Shown here piece after piece: positions 5,850 through 60,546 of a stretch of DNA of 64,000 nucleotides (position 1 is the stretch's first letter; every line of letters begins with the position of its first letter). This stretch comes from Raillietiella orientalis (Eukaryota), in contig JAYWIR010000026.1 in the NCBI GenBank assembly GCA_036172245.1, forward strand, positions 372,001-436,000. Direction: 5' to 3'. The notes beneath the pieces are model-generated. The model worked only from the letters and a program-made list of their open reading frames with translations. It was not told the DNA's origin and searched no databases. The translations under genes and the position numbers were made by a program.

Positions 5850-6215
5850 AACCTACCCTGACCCACCTCCATTTGCATACCCACACCTAGGCAACCACAC
5901 CCAAACTAACCTAACCTAGTCTAATCACGTCTTACCAAATCTCACATCGCATCACTTCACCTAACCTCACTAACTTCACATCACTTCACATCACATCACC
6001 TACCTATCCTATCCTAATCACACCACACCTAACCTCACATACCTAACCGAACCCACATGAACCACCCGACCTAGCTCGCCTATCTAATCAGACAGAACGT
6101 AATCTAACTACACCTTACCGCACCACACCTAACGTAACCTACTCCTCACATGACCACCCTTAGCCTAAGCTAACAGAGTCACACCTCACCTAACTTAACT
6201 TAACCCACTACTACA
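5850..6215 (+). repeat. Degenerate pentamer tract (CCTAA/CACAT/CACCT), telomere-repeat-like
   Basis: G-poor strand with many CCTAA/AACCT units at ~5-nt periodicity. Confidence 0.7.
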
Positions 6216-7805: not shown

Positions 7806-10800
7806 TCACACGCCTGGTAAGCAGTACCGAGAGTCAAGCTCTTTGACGCCGTACAGGGTCGTTCCGCCGGGAGGTAAAGCTTTGATCGGGAACGGGTCCC
7901 CGGGACTCAGATCTCCGTAGCAAAGCCTCGACTTGAACATGGCGAAGGGCTCGGGGTCCGTCTGGCAGGTGGACGGGTAAGTAAACTCCGCGCAGGGGCT
8001 GGGGAAGTTGGCCGCGTTAGCTGCGCCAGCAACGTTCGGCAGGAAGGTCTTGGATGTCTCCGGGTACCTTGCGGCCAGGGGAGGGTAAAACGGCATGCAG
8101 GGAGGGGAATTCGCCGAGCTGATGTTCTGATGCACCCCCGGGGGGTACCAACCACTGCCGCCGAAATCTGGAAGGCAGTTATTGGGAGGCGGCGCGAACG
8201 CTTCGACCTACTTCCTAGGTGGGAGGAGACGCCGTACGGCATCGCCTGCTGCCCGCTCATCATGTTGCCTAGGGTGGAGAGCTGGTGGCTCGTCAGCTGC
8301 TTCCGCAGCCGCGCCCTCCTGTTGCTGAACCACACTTGGATGTGGGCTTCGCTCAGCTTGCATCTGGATGGGCGGAAGACAGATGGCGTTAGCACGTCGG
8401 CTGCTGTTCGCTGAGAGGCGCGCATCGTCTTCGTTCTGTTTCTAGACTCCTCTTACCCTCCCCCGTCGCGGCTGCAATTCCCGAACACTTTCGCGATCGG
8501 AGAGCGAATGCGAGAAGAAGAAAGACTTAATTCTTTAGCATCCGAATTTATCAATTCCGAGTTGAGGGCAAATTTTGGTTACTGCGTTCCCGTGGGATTC
8601 AGCGTGCGAGTTGAATGAAGCGTTTGGATAAAATGGCTGCCATTATTCATCATCGATCGATCCTCTTTTCTCTCTCTCTCTCTCTGCTTGCTGGTGTGCA
8701 TCCGAAACAAATTCTCCGTGAGGAAGAAGAAGAAGAAGAAATAGCAGTTCTTCAAGATGGTAGTTCGGGCTCGCAACGGGAAACGGTAGTGTTTCGCGAG
8801 AGGCGCTCCGACGACCTTAGAAAACTCGAAAGGGTTTTTTTTTTTTTTCGTCCCGCGCGGGTTTTCCGCGAGTAACGCTGAGCATTGTTGCAGCACTGTT
8901 GCTCGTCCGGTCGTTTCCAAGGGAACCGTCCAGCCGAGCGGCTATTTTCGCTCCCTCCGCGGCGAGCGTGGAGCGCCCTCGATTTTGCGGCTTCCGGCCC
9001 ACACAGTCCGGGGGGAGAGGAGGAGCGAGGCGTACTTCTGGGCGAGCTCGTCTCTCGTGTACACGTCGGGATACTGAGTCCTCTCGAAGATCTTTTCCAG
9101 CAGTTCCAGCTGCTCCATCGTAAAGGTGGTGCGCATGCGCCGCTGCTTCCTTTTTAGCAGTATCCCCGGTTCCACATCCAGCTCGCCATCGGTTCCTTGA
9201 ATGTTTTTTTTTAAAAAAAAAAAGGAAAAATGGGTTACAGGGGGGAGAGAGCGGAGGTTACCAAGGATTCCGTTTATCGTGTGGTCACGTTTCTGGTACT
9301 CGAATTCTTCGTCCCTACTGAGCCCTCCTTCTCTGAGGAACCTGCTGATGGAGCTGATGCTGGGCGCCGTCTCCTTCGTGCACAGCCCTTCCTGAAAACC
9401 AAAGGAGGACTGAAGGTGCCGGAGAAGTGGACGTAGCTCCCTCCAGAACCAAACTCACTTGGATGAGTTTGTCGCGGACCTCCCAGGAAAACAAGCCCGG
9501 GTTCTCCCTCTTGTAGGCGTCCACCTTCTTCTCGATTATCGGGGACGCAACCCGCGGCTTGCTGCCTCCGATCACGCCGGGACGGATGGAACCCGTCTCC
9601 TGGTAACGGTTCAGGATCTTCGAAACGCACCCGTGGGACACGCGCAGCTGTCTGCTGATGACACAGGGCCTGACCCCCGCAGCCGCCATCTCCACGATCT
9701 TCAGCCGAATGTGATTGGGCAGCGGTCTTCCGTTTATGAATACACCTCCCAGCTGGTTCACCCTTCCTTGCCCTGGAACACGTAGCGCTCACCTTAACTG
9801 TGGGCGCAAAAAGCGCGCCAACCGCATTCGCATTGTTACCTTTCGAGAGCAGGGTTGCCAGAGTCTCTTTGCTGTTTTTGCACAGCTGGCTGTTCATCTT
9901 TAATTTTCTCATTAAATTTTAATCTATATTAATCTCTACTTTTCAGTTTGAAAAGCAAAAAAGAAAAAAAAAAAAGGATCCTCGAACAAATGGAATTTTG
10001 GAATCGCTCGTAGTCTGAAGCCAGAAGCGTACCTTCTCGGTTTCGGGCTGCTACTTTCTGAGCCCGAGATCATGGAAATGCATTCTTCCCTTCGTTACCG
10101 ATTCGAGCAGCACTTTGCCCTTTTCCCCACCTCTGCATGCGTCTCCCAGGGTGATGTCCTCCTTGCTTGTATCATCTTTTTCATTTACGTTTGCGCCTCT
10201 CGAAAGCTCGTGCGCAGGAAGACGCTCGAAAACGAACGTACGTTTCTCACGCGTTCATTCCTTGAGCTCAAGAGCCAGCGATGAGAGAATAGGGTCCGCA
10301 CAGGAATTCTTCCGGTTCAGAATGTAGCAGAAGACGTCCGCAACGAAGAATAATAAGTCACGGGGATCCTTCCTTTCACCTTGAGATGCCCACTCGCGGC
10401 GGGTCCTCTACCAGGCATCGTTTCCGTGCGCCAACAGACCGGCCGAGAGAATTCCCTCGAGTTCCGGAACGGGGAAAGGTTTCATTTTTCGGGGGGACAC
10501 CTCGTCTCGGAAAGCTTTCAGAAAGAAGGTTCCTCCTCCGTCTCCGAGACTCGGCTTTCCGGTTGCATCCCGGAGCTGTTCGGGAAGACACGGTGTCCTC
10601 GGAGACTTCCTCTCGATAGCACGCGGGAACTCCGTGCTGCACGCACAAACGAGCCGTGCAAACCCCTGCAACCCTTGCTGCCCGGAAAGGCGCTCTAAGT
10701 GGCGCTCCCTATGACATCTCGAGGCGCCGATCGGGCGCGAGGATTTCGTTCTTGCGTCCGATTGACGGGGCTGAATGATGCGCGCCAGGTCGCGATTCAG

Positions 10801-23772: not shown

Positions 23773-25532
23773 TTGGGTGTTTGCTTGCGTCTTTCGTTGG
23801 GGTGATTCGCAGCAAACCGTGCGGTACGGCGCCTTCGCAACGAGAGCTCAAGAAGTCGGCCTTTCTCTGGTAGCAAAAAATGCTGAATTTTGGCGTGGAG
23901 GTTTCCTGGCAACGGAAGGAATGAGGTGCGGCGCATAGGCGCACGTGGGACGTGCAGGTAGGGAACGAGGAAACTGAGGAAGGTGCGTGCGTCCTGGGTC
24001 ATTGCGAGGCGGTGCGTTCATTGACAGAAAGCACGCGGCACGCACGCACACGGCTTCCCCCTTGCAAGACGTCCCTCCCCGCTTGGGAGCGTTTCCTTCG
24101 AGGGAAGCGCCTCCTCAAAGTCCCGTCGGTTCCTCGCCTTTCCTACTCCCTGAATTCCGCACGCCTGTTCGCGGGAAATTACAGGAGCTCCCTGCACGAC
24201 GTCTCTTTGCGGTTCCTCGACGGCTGCAGCTTTACGTCTCTCCAGCGTCCCCTCGTTGCTAAGCCCGCGATGGCACTGCCGGAGACCCATTCCTTCTTCT
24301 TCCTGACACTGCTGGCCTCAGTGGGATTTGGAAATCCTACAGAATGAGGACGGAACTCTGTCGGAAAAGAAGTCCTCTAAATGTAGCTGCTCTAAGAGAA
24401 GAACGGTTTCCTTATAGCGCTGCTGTTTCCAAGTTGCTGACCCTGGGATACAGGGAGAAGACGACAGAAGTAGTTGGTCGGTTGTCTTGCTGCTTCCCGT
24501 TTGGTGGACGCATTCTGGCGGTCCCGGGGTCGTTCGGCAGAAACGAGCTCTTCCCTGCGTTCCTCCTTGTGTGACGGGGTCATCTCTCCTGACTGGCCCC
24601 AGTGTCTGCTCTTCCACCACCCTGTGTCTCGGCTTCCCTGCTCGCTTTCCCGTGCCGGGCGGGTGTGGACTCTGAAGGGAACTTGCCCCCCCCCCCCCTC
24701 ATCCCACGACACGTCCTACGACTTACGATCTCTCTCTTCGCGGGCCCAATCACGGCTGGGCAGCTCTTAAGCTGCCCCTTGGATGCAGGGATGTCATATT
24801 TTCACGGAGTTTGCAGGGACGTCCCGGCCCTGGATTCGGATCCTGGTCAGCCTCTCCTCCAGACTACTGCCGCGGGCGAAGTGCCGTCTGCGCTCAGCGA
24901 CGGTCGAAGTCGTTCTTCATGGGAGCCTTTCCTCCGTGGTCCATGGGATACGTGCGAAGAAGAACAACAGCATGGACAGCCTTCGCGACTATACTTTCCT
25001 GAGTGACGCTCCTGGACTTGCTGTTCTCGAGGATTCCAGGGTTTGAAGGGGTCCGGCGAGACAGGGCTGCCATTCCCCTCCCTTGTCCTTGGATGTTTGG
25101 CCTGCTATCGGATCGGCCTCCCCAGGTTACTGCTGAAAACGGGGGGGTCTTTCTAAAATGATGGATGTGAGGAAGAGAGCATGGAGAAGAAGAGGATGCG
25201 GAGGCCTGGCTATGGCTCGACGTCCAGACGATTCGAGTGGTGTCGTGGTGTTCTCACGGCAACGACCGCCTCCGACGAACAGCGAATGGGTGAGGTTTGC
25301 AGCCTCCTGTGTCCGGTAAAACTGCTTTCGTGCGAGTGGGGGGTGGTGCGCTGCTCGTGAGGCGCCGCTGCTGTGTTTAGCGAACGGAGCGAGCGGTGAG
25401 GACGACGGCGACACGCCTGCGCGACCGCAAGCTCGCGCCGTCTCCGTGGTGACGCGCCACGAGCGGCTCCCCTCGCCCTCCTTCCTCGGCCACCACGCTC
25501 TGGCGACAGACAGGGGGAGGAGGACGAGGAGC

Positions 25533-25964
25533 ATGTGCGCGCCCCCGGTGATCCGGCCCCGCGAGCCTCCATCTCCGACCGGAGACGACGACTCTTCCCT
25601 GCGCCGGCAGTCGCTGAGGTCGGTGGCCGCCCCAGCGTTGGCTCCGCTGCCGCTGCTGATGGAGCTGCTGTTGCTGGCGTGTTCGGTCACAGGCTTCCTT
25701 GACGATCCCGCGGGCAAGGAGGACTGCTTCCATATGGCCTGCCTGGACTTCCACCGGGTGCAGACGCCCTTCATCATCGCCATCTGGGTCTTCAGCGCCA
25801 CCCTGACCAAGATAGGGTTCCATATGACCGAGAGGCTGTCGAAGATCTTCTCGGAGTCCTGCCTGCTGACAGTCGTGGGAGTTGTCGTGGGGCTTCTGCT
25901 GTTCTACACGAGTCGAAGTGCCCCCGGGAGGTCAGGAGCTCGGGTGCCCTGGGCTGCATCGTAG
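25533..25964 (+). pseudogene. 5' fragment of a plasma-membrane Na+/H+ exchanger (SLC9A1-5 / Nhe2-like)
   Basis: Translation ...LDFHRVQTPFIIAIWVFSATLTKIGFHMTERLSKIFSESCLLTVVGVVVGLLLFYT resembles the first NHE transmembrane segments, preceded by a hydrophobic signal-like stretch. Similarity stops at ~25910 and I see no downstream NHE exons (e.g. LPPII.DAGY) in the window. The conserved Pro of PESCLL is replaced by Ser. Confidence 0.75.
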
Positions 25965-52782: not shown

Positions 52783-52851
52783 TTTATTTCTTTTAATGCT
52801 TTCGATGCCTTGCTGTTAGGGAGCACACATATCACAGGAATTTTATCACAT
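52783..52851 (-). promoter_or_regulatory. E(spl) 3' UTR: two K-boxes and poly(A) signal
   Basis: Minus strand ATGTGATA (52851-52844) and perfect CTGTGATA (52837-52830), followed by AATAAA (52788-52783). Confidence 0.85.
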
Positions 52852-52927
52852 GTTGAGATCAGACATGAAGAAAAACATATTCACAATACGCCCGGGTCAA
52901 GTTTTCGGAAGGTCTTTGGGTAGGGTG

Positions 52928-53985
52928 CTACCAAGGTCTCCATATGCTGCTGGCCGAGGACAGGTTGAGGGGCTTGGAGGCGGCCAGCAGCTCTTCGTCG
53001 AGCTTCGTATTGCACACGTACGGAAGCGTCGCCGACTGCAGGCCTTCCTTGGGCGACCAGGGCGACCGGGATTCCGCGGGGGACTCGGCGGGCGAGATGG
53101 GCGACACGGGAGGAGTGTAGCACTCGTGCACGTTCACCACGAGCGGGACGGACCTGTCCAGCTGGGTCACGCAGTGGCCGAGGTGGGCCATCAGGCGGCT
53201 GCCCAGCTGCACGTCGATGCCAGGAGTGCGCGCCAAGCACTTGGAGATCTCACTCGCGCAGTGCGTGAAGCCGGCCTTGAACTTGTCCATCGAGTTCACG
53301 GGCTGCCCGATGCACAGCTGACCCAACCTCTTGAGCTTCCTCAGGTGGTTCACCGTCAGTTCCAACACGTCCGCCTTCTCCAGCTTGGAAACGTTGTCTC
53401 CTTCGGAGGCCACCGCGGTCACAATGAGCTCTTTGAGCTCGTCCAGGCATTTGTTGATGCGCGCTCTCCTCTTGCGCTCCAGCATCGGTTTCATGATCTG
53501 CAAAGATGGCGCGTTTACTGACCGCCTCGAGGGTCTCTTCCGTCGCTTCGTTTCTGCCGCTTTCGGTCAGCGCGCGCTCGCTCGCGGCTCCTCGGACGGG
53601 CAGCCGAGATCTTCGCCGGCGCGCTTCCCGCCGTTCCCACGGGAACGGCGGGAAGCGACGGCTGCACGCGCCGAACACGCGAAGCGCACGCCTCCGGAAC
53701 GAGGGAGGGGGGCGGGGGGTGCGCTCCCCGTCCGTCCTTATCTGCGTACGCGAATGCGTGTACATGGATGTGCACTCGACAGACGGACGTACACACGCGA
53801 AGGCTCGCCCGGACGAACAAACAGCAAACGCACGCAGCGCGTCGAAAGCAAACACGGCGCCCGCGCAACTCAGAAGAGACAGAGAGGGAGAGGGAGGGAG
53901 GGGAAAAAAAAAAGAAAAAAATGGTGCTCACTTTGCGGTACTGGTAGGTCCGGGATACTGGCTGGCACATCACAACCGTTGTCAT
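52928..53985 (-). CDS. E(spl): Enhancer of split-type bHLH-Orange-WRPW transcriptional repressor (E(spl)mbeta/mgamma-like), 2 exons, 207 aa
   Basis: Exon 1 53985-53932 (MTTVVMCQPVSRTYQYRK, donor GTGAG) and exon 2 53497-52928 (acceptor TTTGCAG; IMKPMLERKRRARINKCLDELK...KLEKADVLELTV...Orange FKAGFTHCASEI...WRPW stop). The SRTYQYRKxMKPMLERKRRARIN signature is typical of the E(spl) subfamily rather than hairy/deadpan. Confidence 0.96.
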
Positions 53986-54070: not shown

Positions 54071-54186
54071 GAATGACAGGAGGGCCGCGCGCGCGAGACA
54101 TATATAGGAGAGCGTGGCCGAAGTCTCACCAGCTGGAGCGTGAGGTGCCCCTCGTGGGACCGTGGGAAACTCCGTGCGTTCCCACA
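54071..54186 (-). promoter_or_regulatory. E(spl) bHLH promoter: Inr, TATA and Su(H)/CSL sites
   Basis: On the minus strand TATATA (54106-54101) lies ~30 nt above an Inr match TCATTC (54076-54071); no upstream ATG in the resulting 5' UTR. Su(H) consensus sites CGTGGGAA 54161-54168 and TTCCCACA 54179-54186, plus variant CGTGGGAC 54153-54160. Confidence 0.8.
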
Positions 54187-54964
54187 CATTCGATACCACC
54201 TGGGTAAGACAAGAAGTTGGCGTTCTGCGACCATTTTCTCTTTCTTTCTCTTTCTTTCTTTTTTTTTTTTTTTTTTTTTTTTTTTCCTCTCTCCTCCTCT
54301 CCTCTTCTTTTCCCCTTCGCTCGCTCGCTCGCCGCACGTCCTCGCGTGCTGCGGGACGCGCCGCCAACTCTTTATTTCGGAGATTTCGTGCCACGAGCGC
54401 CAGAAAGAGCTGCCGGAGAGAGCTGCATCGGATTGCAGATGCGGGGAAAAGAAAAATATAATTGCGGCATTTAACGGATCGCAGATCGTTAATGAGAGAG
54501 AGAAAGAAGGAGGAAGAAAGAAAAAAAAAAAAAAAAAAAAAGGAAGAAAAAAAGGAGGGGGGAAGGGAAGAGGGAAGAAGAAGAAGAAGGAGGAGAGGGG
54601 AAGCGGAAAGCATTCGAGCGGGTGTTTCGAGGAGCACCTCGCGGGGGGTGAGCTGCTGGAGGATCCCGGGCGCGCCCAAGGGATTTTCGCTCCGGGTTGG
54701 GAGGGATGGGGGAGGGAAGGGGAGACCCCCCGGGCCCTCCCCCATTTCGTGAAATTAGCAGCGGCGACGGCGCTTTCTGGCCGCACGTCCGCCCGAAGAG
54801 CTCTTCGGCCGGAAAGCACCCCCGCACGAGCGAGGGGGGGGGACTTTGGCTTGGAGGGCGCGGCCTCAAAGAGCGGTTTATCGGAAGCGGCGGCGGAAAA
54901 GGCATCCGAAAGATCGATAGAGGAAATTCTTGAGGAGCACACCGAATTCTTCTCCGTTAACGCA

Positions 54965-56563: not shown

Positions 56564-57366
56564 GGCGAGCAGCCGCCCGACCGTGCCCGGGGGCCTGGGC
56601 TTCACCTTTTTCTTCTCCGATCGCGCGGAAAGGCCCGACAAAAGGGCCGGATGGAGGGCCGCCGTCTGCGGCGCGCAGGCTTCCCAGCAGGGAGGAGGGC
56701 TTCGGGACGTCTTGGCGCGCGCCCCCGTCTGGCTCGCTCCACCGGCGGCGCACCAGCCGCGCTCGGCGCGCGCGCGGTCTGCGCGCCAAGGCCGCCGCCG
56801 CCGCCTTCTCGCCGTGCGTTTCCGCTCTTCGCGCGCTCGGAGAACGGCGGCGGGGCCGACCCATCCGAGACAATCACGAGGGCAGGTAGGGCCGCTGCTC
56901 CTCCGCGACCATCTGTCGCCGCATTCTTCTTCCTTGAGGAAGGGAGCGACGCGGGGGAAAACTGCGGTTCACGTTTTACTCCCGCGTTGTCGGGGCAACG
57001 TGCACGTGCCAGACTCTCGGCGCGATGGCGTCCTTTCCTCTTCTTTCGCTCCCCTCCCCCTTCCTTTCTCTCGAAGAGCTATCTTCCTTCTTCGGGAGGA
57101 GGAAAACACCGATTCCAGGAGGGGGGGCTCTTCTGAAGTCTTTCGTCACTACCGACCGACCACGTTCCCGATTTTCGCGGTCAGGTCCGGCCCTTGCACC
57201 GCTTCGCGGGGGGTTCCCCTGGCTCTTCCGGACACGAGGTGCAAGGAGCGTGCACGTCTTGTACGATGCTCGGACGGGCACTGGCGAAGCCCCCGGGCAC
57301 GAACGTCGAAGCATCCATCCGACGAGCACGCTTTTTGTTTTTTGTTTTTGTTTTTGCTTTTTTGCA

Positions 57367-57384
57367 TATCACAGTCACTTTATT
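57367..57384 (-). promoter_or_regulatory. BFM-like 3' UTR: poly(A) signal and perfect K-box
   Basis: Minus strand AATAAA (57384-57379) and CTGTGATA (57374-57367), 70-85 nt after the stop codon. Confidence 0.75.
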
Positions 57385-57452
57385 CTTAAAGGTCATCGTG
57401 AAGTTCCGGCTTGAAAGACTTGCAAGTGTGTCGCCGAGGGCGGCGGGAAAAC

Positions 57453-58014
57453 TCAAGACGCGGTGGTCACCTCCCGGTGACGCTTGCTCAGGGAGCTCAC
57501 TTCTGCGGAATTGATCCAGAAGGTGCCCAGGAAACACTGCTGCGAGTACCCGTCGCTGTGGAGATCGACGGATTTCGTTCGTTCTTCCAGCACGGTTTGC
57601 AACTCGTCCCCGCGGGGGGTCGAGGAGGACCACCTCATGAATATGCGCTTCTCGGCGGCTTCGTTTAGGATGTTCTCTTCGATCTCCCTGCCAAACAGTT
57701 TGAAGGAACTGTTCGTGATCTTCCCAAAGCTTCCCTTCCTGACGCACAGAGCCTTGACTTTCTTCAAGGTCGATTTCAGAGCCTGCAAAGCAAAAGACAC
57801 GTTGAAAAAAAAAGGAAAAATAAAAAAAGAATGAATGAGCAAAACGCTGTCCGCGTATCCCCAGACCAAGGCAAAAGAAAAAAAAAAAAAAAAGAAAAAA
57901 GGAACACATCGAGCACAAAGCAAAGAGGGAAACCCCCAAAGGACCACCGGAAGAACCCCCACTTACGAATTTCACTTTGGGCAGGAAGGAGTGCCTCTTG
58001 ACTCTTGCGTCCAT
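57453..58014 (-). CDS. Bearded-family (BFM, E(spl)m4/malpha-like) Neuralized-binding Notch antagonist, 2 exons, 125 aa
   Basis: Exon 1 58014-57967 (AGC-ATG-G context; MDARVKRHSFLPKVKF; donor GTAAGT) and exon 2 57782-57453 (acceptor TTTGCAG; ALKSTLKKVKALCVRK...EIEENILNEAAEKRI...CFLGTFWINS...TTAS stop), phase 0. Basic amphipathic N-terminus, ENxxNE (N motif) and GTFW (G-motif-like) occur in BFM order; TATA upstream and K-box downstream. Confidence 0.75.
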
Positions 58015-58165: not shown

Positions 58166-58172
58166 TTTTATA
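58166..58172 (-). promoter_or_regulatory. TATA box of the BFM-like gene
   Basis: Perfect TATAAAA on the minus strand in a GC-rich context, ~150 nt above the ATG, with no intervening ATG. Confidence 0.7.
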
Positions 58173-60546
58173 GGCTCCGCTCTTCGCTTCCGGCAAAAGC
58201 AGGGTTGCACATTGGACGGCGGTTAACAGGTTCCGACTTGATCGAGGAAGCACTTGCGCGGAGGCCGCTGCGGCAGGCAGGGCGTGCGCAGGCCGGGAAT
58301 GCAGCCGGGCGGGCTGCACCGTAAGCTTCATCTCCTGGTACTTCGGGGAAGGAATGCGCCTCCGAGGACGAACACGTGAACGCGGCTCGAAAGAGCGTGG
58401 CCACCTGAGCGCGCACCGTGCCACCGATGCGGCTCGAGCCCGTAGCCGAGCAGAATCCCCGGTGGCTGCAGACTTGCAATGGCTCTGACCGGTCGTCATT
58501 TCTTGCGCACAAGACTTTTTTTCTGCCACGGTGTAAGCGACCTCCTCCTCAACTTTTCGACCATCAGATGCTTTCTTTCTTTTTGCTTTCGTTCGAGTGA
58601 GTCTTTTTTTTTTGAAAAAAAAGAAAAAAAAAAAAAAAAAACGAAATTTTTTTTTCCCCACTGCAGCCCCGGCATTCTCATTTTGAATCATTGCGTCTTG
58701 AGATCATTTGCTTTTCCACAAGCAGAGCATTCGTGCGTTCTGAAAAAATCCCAACATTGAAAGAAGGTGGCCATGGTTACTCATGCCATATTGTTGATGC
58801 GAAGAATGATAAACAAGGTGGCCATGGTTACTCAAGCCATATTCTGGCTCCTAAAACTGGCCGCTGATGGCATGGCAGCCCGTATCGATGGCGATGAATG
58901 CGAAAAGTGAGCGACTGTCCAGAAGGAGCAAGCGTCGGGAATAGGGATGTCGGCTGTTTCCAAGTTTCTTCACGAACTTTTGGCCACGAATTGTAGGTTT
59001 GGCTTGGACAGAATGCTTTCCTTTCCTTTTCGCTTGTGGTGCGCACTCGCGCTGTGTACATAACCTCAGCTGCACATTCAACCGATTTGCATGCACCAAC
59101 GCAGGCCGAGAGGGAATCCACGGACTACTCGAGCGCGTCTAAGCCAAAGTCTTTTACAGGCCCCCTTACTTCCGGGAGAGAACCCGCATGAAATGTGTTT
59201 TGAGATTCCCACCGAGGAAGGAAGGAAATTGAGAGGAAGAGGAAGGAAGTTGTAACAGTCCAAACCAAAGAACAAAATACCGAGCTAATCCATTTGCGTC
59301 TGGAACCATCGCTACTTGGGCATTCGGTTTTCTTCGCTTGTTGCTTTCTTGGTGCTGCTTTTTTTTTTTTTTTGTCTTTTCTTGAGAGGACAGAGGAGAG
59401 TTAAAGCCATCCTCCTTAAGAAGAAGAATACCGAGAGTAAAAATTGAGTTCACGTACGATGATGCATCTTCGTCGCATACTCATTTAATTAGCTCAGGGG
59501 CGCGACGTATTACGAGAGTTTAGACCAGCGGTGGGCACAGGGAAAGCGTGGCCTAAACAAAAGTTTCATTATTCTACTACTTCAGTTTCAGGAGTTTTTT
59601 GAAGAAAAAGAAATGCCGAAGAGTAAGTTCGTTCCCGAAAGATCTTCACGAAAGACCTCTCTTCTTGTAGCATTTGAAACTGTTGGTGAACATTGGCTCC
59701 CTTCAGCTGAAAGACGATTCGGATGCATCATTTGCGTTGTAACGGTCTCCTCGTTGCTACCGACGTCAAAGTTTGCTAACTCTGAACCCCCCTCGGGCAG
59801 TTTGTTCCCTTTTATTCGTTTTCGCGGTACGTAAACGCGGATCGTCCGGGAAGTCCAGCATTTACCTCGGGAATTCCTTGATGCCTGTTGATCCGTTATT
59901 CCCAGTTTCGTAGTTGGTTGAGTGGACCACCTGTGCCGCTCATTCCGTTCCCATCTGAGAGGGGTAAGGTTTCCAAAGAGTCTCGGACGGGAGAGGCGTT
60001 TCCTCCGGCCTGGTAGAAGACAGCTCTCAGGAGGAGGTGGATGACTGTGGCAGAGGAAAAAACTCTGACCCTTGCCGGGCATCATCGCAAAGAATCGTTG
60101 CTTTCTGTACGCATGCTGTGTTGTGTCCTGGCGTCTTTTCCGCACGCGAGTGCTGCTCCGTGACGACGGCCGCCTCCCGCCACGGTAGCTTCGTAGGAAC
60201 AGAGGGGGGAGCGACCAAGGAGGAGGATGCCCAAAAGCCCAAACTCTCCGTTCCTGCTTTCCGGCTTTCGAGCCTCGGCAGCGGCCCTACGGAAGACCGT
60301 TCTTCTACCACGGGAACCACCAGAGCGCGCAGCAGCAGCAGCAGCAGCACCGGGGCGACACTTGGTGCCTTCTTTCCCCTCTCCGAGAGGCGCGAGAGCG
60401 GGGCTGCAGCTTCCTTGCTGCGGAGCCCGTCCTCGTGTCGGGAGGCATGCTCTCCTAGGAGATTTAAGGGAGAGTAAATACCTTACTTTCACGCTTGACT
60501 CCCTGGCTTAAGGTGTGCGTCCGGGGTTGTCAATAGACCTGCCGAG

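Follow-up and report, generated by a model that had tools for sequence, protein, structure and literature searches.

A 64,000-nucleotide (nt) stretch of Raillietiella orientalis DNA (contig JAYWIR010000026.1, positions 372,001 to 436,000 of the forward strand; hereafter the window) carries on its minus strand a small predicted gene that is probably a strongly diverged Bearded (Brd)-class gene with one short predicted intron, the counterpart of E(spl)malpha in the arthropod Enhancer of split (E(spl)) locus. The candidate is situated 3.3 kilobases (kb) upstream of a gene for a basic helix-loop-helix (bHLH) repressor of the E(spl) type, on the same strand and directly adjacent, and a gene of its kind is already expected at such a position, a Brd-class gene within the E(spl) complex being the published ancestral state of insects and crustaceans in the account of PMC4575448. 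Established here are the gene signals, the coding signature, the order of motifs, a K box held in common with the bHLH gene and the linkage to that gene; the strongest new evidence is a K-box 10-mer common to the 3' untranslated regions (3'UTRs) of the two genes. The proposed membership of the Bearded family is drawn entirely from motif order (a basic N-terminus, then NILNE, then GTFW) together with position.

Shared K box and coding signature

The K box TGTGAT occurs 13 times in the window when both strands are considered, seven of these being on the minus strand, and three of the seven fall inside the two predicted 3'UTRs, 274 nt in all, against an expectation of 0.03-0.05 (Poisson P 3.5e-6). 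Two are located in the bHLH 3'UTR, at 52850 and 52836, 14 nt apart, and the second of them lies inside the 10-mer CTGTGATATG (52837-52828). The third, that of the candidate, is embedded in the same 10-mer (57374-57365), which is found exactly twice on the two strands of the window, at 52837 and 57374, once per predicted 3'UTR. An AATAAA followed by a K box had been pointed out at the candidate's 3' end in a first-pass annotation of this DNA made from the letters; both are indeed in place, and the 10-mer around that K box proves to recur beside the bHLH gene. The sequence CTGTGATA is the full complement of the 5' end of the miR-2 family. K, Brd and GY boxes are described as microRNA sites in the 3'UTRs of E(spl)-complex and Brd transcripts (PMC3261227; PMC4575448), and the candidate looks to share a post-transcriptional control site with the E(spl) bHLH gene. 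Neither a Brd box nor a GY box was found in the 3' end of the candidate.

The remaining signals are arranged as listed in Table 1. The same annotation had described a TATAAAA, a leader free of ATG, a start codon in good context, a phase-0 GTAAGT...TTTGCAG intron and a 125-amino-acid product, all of which are present as sequence features. The start codon at 58014 stands in the context CGCAGCATGG, with A at -3 and G at +4, and the true 5' untranslated region is the 3' part of the 151-nt leader. The predicted 184-nt intron has a guanine plus cytosine (GC) content of 40% and is 53% T, and its removal would yield the product of 125 residues. The frame of exon 2 stays open across the intron, giving a 169-amino-acid open reading frame (ORF), with no ATG inside the intron itself. 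If the transcript were left unspliced, the first in-frame ATG would lead to only 61 amino acids, devoid of the basic part and of NILNE, and reading on from the ATG at 58014 would run into a poly-phenylalanine nonsense frame. Further upstream, 0.6 kb from the TATA box, a sequence of about 30 nt (...TGAGTAACCATGGCCACCTT...) is directly repeated, its two copies being about 50 nt apart on the minus strand (58761-58842).

The openness of a frame carries no weight as such in this window, as long open frames fill its GC-rich DNA: GC content is 46-67% in 4-kb steps, 248 frames of at least 120 amino acids are open from stop to stop, and exon 2 is spanned by two open frames in the sense direction and one in the antisense. 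These counts, together with the failure to find any homologue, would favour the view that there is no protein-coding gene here at all, the open frame of the candidate having arisen by chance from high GC content, or the region yielding an RNA of the E(spl) locus with a non-coding or regulatory role. Codon usage argues otherwise. GC at codon positions 1, 2 and 3 amounts to 0.45, 0.42 and 0.76 in exon 2 and to 0.56, 0.44 and 0.87 in the bHLH exon, so that third-position periodicity in the predicted frame is at the level of the bHLH exon, and in a sliding scan of the window for codon periodicity exon 2 ranks third (top 0.64% of windows), surpassed only by the bHLH exon and by an exon-like stretch at 25.6 kb. 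Composition separates exon 2 as well: arginine, proline, glycine and alanine jointly make up 19% of it, whereas the median of 349 ORFs of at least 100 amino acids is 41% and 1 of them is as low or lower. From promoter and ATG-free leader through intron and stop codon to AATAAA and K box, the signals moreover follow each other in coherent order, and the K-box 10-mer recurs in the 3'UTR of the neighbour. An antisense ORF of 117 amino acids (57481-57831, plus strand) overlaps exon 2 and also scores on periodicity; it matches no Pfam family, displays no gene signals and is interpreted as a reflection of the sense gene on the opposite strand. Since periodicity is blind to strand, the strand was assigned from the TATA box, the GT-AG intron, the AATAAA and the K box. 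With a chance or non-coding origin improbable on these grounds, the small spliced gene that had been proposed beside the E(spl) bHLH gene is borne out by codon periodicity, composition and ordered signals: a two-exon protein-coding gene very probably exists here, its splicing and expression being predicted from the sequence.

Probable relationship to the Bearded family

Bearded-family proteins range from about 70 to 220 amino acids, and the predicted 125 residues fall inside that range. A fourth, C-terminal motif is not universal in the family. As set out in bioRxiv 10.1101/2025.09.29.679213, motif 1 is an amphipathic helix, motif 2 a Neuralized-binding stretch of 10 amino acids and motif 3 the sequence GTFFW in a beta-hairpin, which in E(spl)m4 is proposed to bind the MATH domain of Traf4; the Neuralized-binding consensus NxxN is given for Delta, Serrate and the Brd proteins (PMC12678834; PMC3241720). 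In the candidate product, residues 1-45 are strongly basic, with 13 lysines or arginines against one aspartate or glutamate. They are followed by NILNE (residues 53-57), the sole NxxN of the product and part of an acidic stretch, and by GTFW (residues 102-105). A pattern of N..NE and then, 20-90 residues on, GTF(F)W is encountered once in the six-frame translation of the window, namely in the candidate, and GTF(F)W alone has 2 occurrences there. AlphaFold2, run on exon 2 as a single sequence, returned a low-confidence model with a mean predicted local distance difference test score (pLDDT) of 53, insufficient for a structure-based search, and the only part at pLDDT 64-71 is a predicted beta-hairpin that holds GTFW (exon-2 residues 70-76 and 79-91).

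The claims that had been made for these motifs are accordingly of mixed standing. NILNE is a Neuralized-type NxxN as far as pattern matching goes, and the lack of a C-terminal motif (motif 4, or D motif) had rightly been noted. Of the basic amphipathic N-terminal helix the basic character stands and the amphipathicity is not significant; a GTFW stretch is present in family order, one F short of GTFFW. As for the family assignment as a whole, motif order, K box and position speak for it, but homology searches and amphipathicity do not.

Several observations indeed weigh against a Brd-class identity. Segments within residues 10-35 have hydrophobic moments of 0.24-0.40, values reached by 13-47% of shuffles of the same residues; the highest moment of the product is instead found at residues 35-52, and 24% of whole-protein shuffles attain it. 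Without an alignment, AlphaFold2 draws the N-terminal segment, with low confidence, as a strand rather than a helix (pLDDT about 53-64). GTFW is one F short of GTFFW, motif 4 is missing from the product, and NxxN by itself is a weak pattern, which by a rough estimate chance would place in about 1 of 10 such proteins. At the level of the locus, the K box is only a few nt off the predicted cleavage site, no YGTGRGAA site for Su(H) lies within 2.4 kb upstream of the candidate, and the tandem arrangement with the bHLH gene departs from the head-to-head one described for two insects (see below).

The homology searches belong with these adverse points. A profile match, by which the first-pass annotation expected the family assignment to be checked, was not obtained: Pfam returned 0 families for exon 2 at E<=10 and 0 for the 169-amino-acid frame, searched among 150 ORFs of the window, at E<=0.01. 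Pfam presumably holds a Bearded-family model, and as its presence in the copy searched is unconfirmed, this blank is a weak test. No Bearded-family member was retrieved by phmmer from 1.84 billion representative proteins. A word-indexed protein search with the candidate gave 0 matches (2 preliminary candidates, none scored), the ESM Atlas yielded no usable match, and a sequence search of the PDB produced nothing relevant. Among what was set aside, the single phmmer match (P0122, E 5.6e-4) is an 877-amino-acid repeat protein aligned over 27 residues only, which we read as chance, and the PDB matches, to Cas2 and others, all had E>0.3 and were rejected. Scanning of metagenome contigs for the motif pattern gave 535 matches, 0 of them confirmed.

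Such a result would also be obtained if the gene were real, small and K-box-regulated yet not descended from Bearded, having arisen within the lineage or been inserted, and having come under control of the E(spl) locus, with NxxN and GTFW coincidental. The lack of sequence or profile similarity to any protein in the searches fits an independent origin, as do the non-significant amphipathicity, GTFW in place of GTFFW, the absent C-terminal motif and the predicted intron, the last unlike the Drosophila E(spl) bHLH genes, which are described as intronless in PMC1310631. Unrelated genes inserted into E(spl) complexes are moreover on record and can still be Notch-regulated (PMC4575448). Such an origin would, on the other hand, leave to coincidence that three family features appear in family order with plausible spacing, in a combined pattern unique in the window, and at a place where the published ancestral complex predicts exactly one fast-evolving gene of this type by the bHLH genes (PMC4575448). 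The silence of the searches is itself to be judged against the neighbour. A quick tree with 41 insect and unnamed proteins places the bHLH protein by itself, its end branch measuring 3.91 where the median is 0.09, so its lineage is, by this measure, outside the sampled insects or very fast-evolving relative to them; with the bHLH protein itself so diverged, a Brd partner beyond detection is unsurprising and even to be expected. We therefore hold an independent origin to be less likely, if by some way the more serious of the two objections raised here, and retain a diverged Brd-class gene as the probable identity.

Comparison with known members gives a similar mixture. Drosophila Brd genes are not known to contain introns. 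With the Drosophila family (E(spl)m4, E(spl)malpha, Tom, Ocho, Brd and Bob) the candidate has in common the order of basic N-terminus, NxxN and GTFFW-type motif, the small size and the microRNA boxes in the 3'UTR. It differs in having GTFW rather than GTFFW, a motif 1 that is basic and not measurably amphipathic, and a predicted splice; a C-terminal motif, Brd and GY boxes and a proximal Su(H) site are all lacking. The closest counterpart is E(spl)malpha of the ancestral complex, reconstructed for insects and crustaceans as bHLH2, her, malpha and bHLH1 (Dearden 2015, PMC4575448). The same source describes malpha as a rapidly evolving gene that is difficult to recover with BLAST and seems to be absent from a copepod, a beetle and several bugs, and a springtail genome paper reports the same gap (PMC5644144). 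The candidate resembles it as a small protein gene beside E(spl) bHLH-Orange genes, with a fast-evolving sequence of a kind often missed by BLAST, with a Pax gene of gooseberry type in the vicinity and with K-box control in common with the bHLH gene. The differences are that a single bHLH-Orange gene is present in 64 kb, with the candidate directly adjacent in tandem; that the candidate has no BLAST or profile similarity to any protein and has a predicted intron; and that the bHLH protein falls far outside the insect proteins of the tree. Anopheles gambiae and Apis mellifera are reported to possess a minimal mbeta/malpha pair placed head to head (Schlatter and Maier 2005, PMC1310631). The pair described here is likewise minimal, a single E(spl) bHLH gene with a single gene of probable Brd type, and the distance is again a matter of kilobases (3.3 kb, against about 8 kb in the mosquito), but the two are in tandem, and the insect malpha genes are recognisable from Drosophila (almost 60% identity in the mosquito, PMC1310631), which the candidate is not.

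The bHLH neighbour and the surrounding locus

The adjoining gene had been called an E(spl) bHLH gene, and its domain content identifies it as a genuine E(spl)-type repressor gene: the protein matches the Pfam families HLH (E 3.2e-14) and Hairy_orange (E 5.7e-17), terminates in WRPW and has 52-55% full-length identity to insect E(spl) mbeta/mgamma proteins, the best value being 55%. With the proteins of the tree included, identity to insect proteins is 52-59%, and none is closer. Its intron falls between YRK and IMKP, and it is the sole bHLH-Orange gene of the window. In its promoter, TGTGGGAA-N10-TTCCCACG forms an inverted pair of Su(H) sites (54161-54202) with the E-boxes CAGGTG and CAGCTG in flanking position, about 60-90 nt upstream of a TATATAT, an architecture resembling that of Drosophila E(spl) genes. 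The canonical spacer of paired Su(H) sites is 15-17 nt, and that of 10 nt seen here is shorter.

We count 16 copies of the consensus YGTGRGAA in the window against an expectation of 8.95, and 4 of 100 shuffles attain 16; 7 of the 16 sites are concentrated around the bHLH gene, between 51.5 and 56 kb (binomial P 5.5e-5), which is to say 1.5-5.8 kb downstream of the candidate. Upstream of the candidate the elements are weak: the Su(H) core, which belongs to the site GGTGGGAA at about -1 kb and misfits YGTGRGAA, and a GCAGCTG close to it (Table 1) are not above chance.

On the far side of the window, 43 kb from the bHLH gene, we located a Pax3/7 gene of gooseberry/paired type, the homeodomain of which is split across two exons. 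Its paired box has 83-90% identity to arthropod Pax3/7 proteins among the matches, with chelicerates, springtails, crustaceans, myriapods and insects alike and no nearest group. Paired box and bHLH protein together indicate an arthropod host, probably a pancrustacean whose lineage is poorly sampled or evolves fast. Since gooseberry is reported to border the E(spl) complex in every hymenopteran examined as well as in the leafhopper Homalodisca (Dearden 2015, PMC4575448), the linkage to Pax3/7, along with the Su(H) pair and the E-boxes, makes the layout of the locus that expected of an arthropod E(spl) complex. Two further minus-strand K boxes, 27 nt apart, are found at 5990-6022, about 1.8 kb beyond the final coding exon of the Pax gene, and may sit in a long Pax 3'UTR. 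Elsewhere in the window, the plus-strand stretch 25320-25964 has the second-strongest codon periodicity and zero Pfam matches; its translation may resemble the membrane-embedded N-terminal portion of a Na+/H+ exchanger. Scanning the window with Rfam and for tRNA genes gave no match.

Table 1. Positions of the features discussed, in window coordinates
Feature	Position	Strand	Basis or remark
CCAAT box, candidate core promoter	58215-58211	minus	read in sequence
TATAAAA, candidate core promoter	58172-58166	minus	read in sequence
Candidate core promoter, CCAAT through TATA	58166..58215	minus	predicted promoter
Leader, TATA box to start codon	58015..58165	minus	151 nt, zero ATG
Candidate coding exon 1, 16 amino acids, basic	57967..58014	minus	translation
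Predicted candidate intron, phase 0, 184 nt, GTAAGT...TTTGCAG	57783..57966	minus	GT-AG signals
Candidate coding exon 2, 109 amino acids and TGA; rest of basic segment, NILNE, GTFW	57453..57782	minus	translation
Predicted candidate 3'UTR	57363..57452	minus	AATAAA and K box; cleavage site inferred
AATAAA of candidate	57384-57379	minus	read in sequence
K box TGTGAT of candidate	57373-57368	minus	inside CTGTGATATG
Weak candidate control elements	59067..59212	minus	Su(H) core GTGGGAA 59212-59206 and GCAGCTG at about 59067
E(spl)-type bHLH-Orange gene	52928..53985	minus	Pfam, identity to insect proteins, tblastn
bHLH exon 1	53985-53932	minus	
bHLH intron	53931-53498	minus	
bHLH exon 2	53497-52928	minus	ends in WRPW
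bHLH promoter	54100..54202	minus	5'-3': CAGGTG, TGTGGGAA, 10 nt, TTCCCACG, CAGCTG, TATATAT
bHLH 3'UTR	52788..52927	minus	stop at 52928, AATAAA at 52788, two K boxes
Pax3/7 (gooseberry/paired-type) gene	7907-9788	minus	paired box 9444-9773, PAX E 8.5e-62

Possible role and meaning for the family

Brd proteins are reported to bind Neuralized and to block its access to the tails of the ligands in signal-receiving cells (PMC6070291), and each step of the mechanism proposed here is carried over from the Drosophila family. In cells receiving a Notch signal, the candidate and the bHLH repressor gene would be activated jointly, and the 125-residue product of the former may bind the E3 ligase Neuralized through NILNE. 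Neuralized would in this way be kept from the intracellular tails of Delta and Serrate, leaving the receiving cell unable to signal back. As with the bHLH gene, microRNAs that recognise the K box (a miR-2-type seed) could keep transcript levels down through the CTGTGATA of the 3'UTR. A second protein-binding surface may be formed by the GTFW hairpin, just as an interaction with Traf4 has been put forward for the GTFFW of E(spl)m4. The candidate does not alter current views of the workings of the pathway.

In lateral inhibition the Notch response has two arms, the bHLH repressors and, as the second, the Brd-class genes; surveys report the latter as missing in many arthropods owing to their fast evolution (PMC4575448; PMC5644144). 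The combination of position, coding signature, motif order and a K-box 10-mer in common supplies a practical route to such 'missing' genes, which BLAST and profiles overlook. As a probable member, the candidate would add an intron-bearing variant of GTFW type and thereby show which residues of the family are dispensable. More tentatively, and with less than even confidence, we suggest that it may be a true Neuralized-binding Brd-class gene, in a lineage with a bHLH protein far outside the insect cluster, and that the pairing and the shared K-box control have persisted here in a spliced form invisible to profiles. If so, many of the reported losses of malpha, in a copepod, a springtail and several bugs and beetles, would be failures of detection, and if the host lies outside insects and crustaceans, the pairing of bHLH and Brd genes would be older than published.

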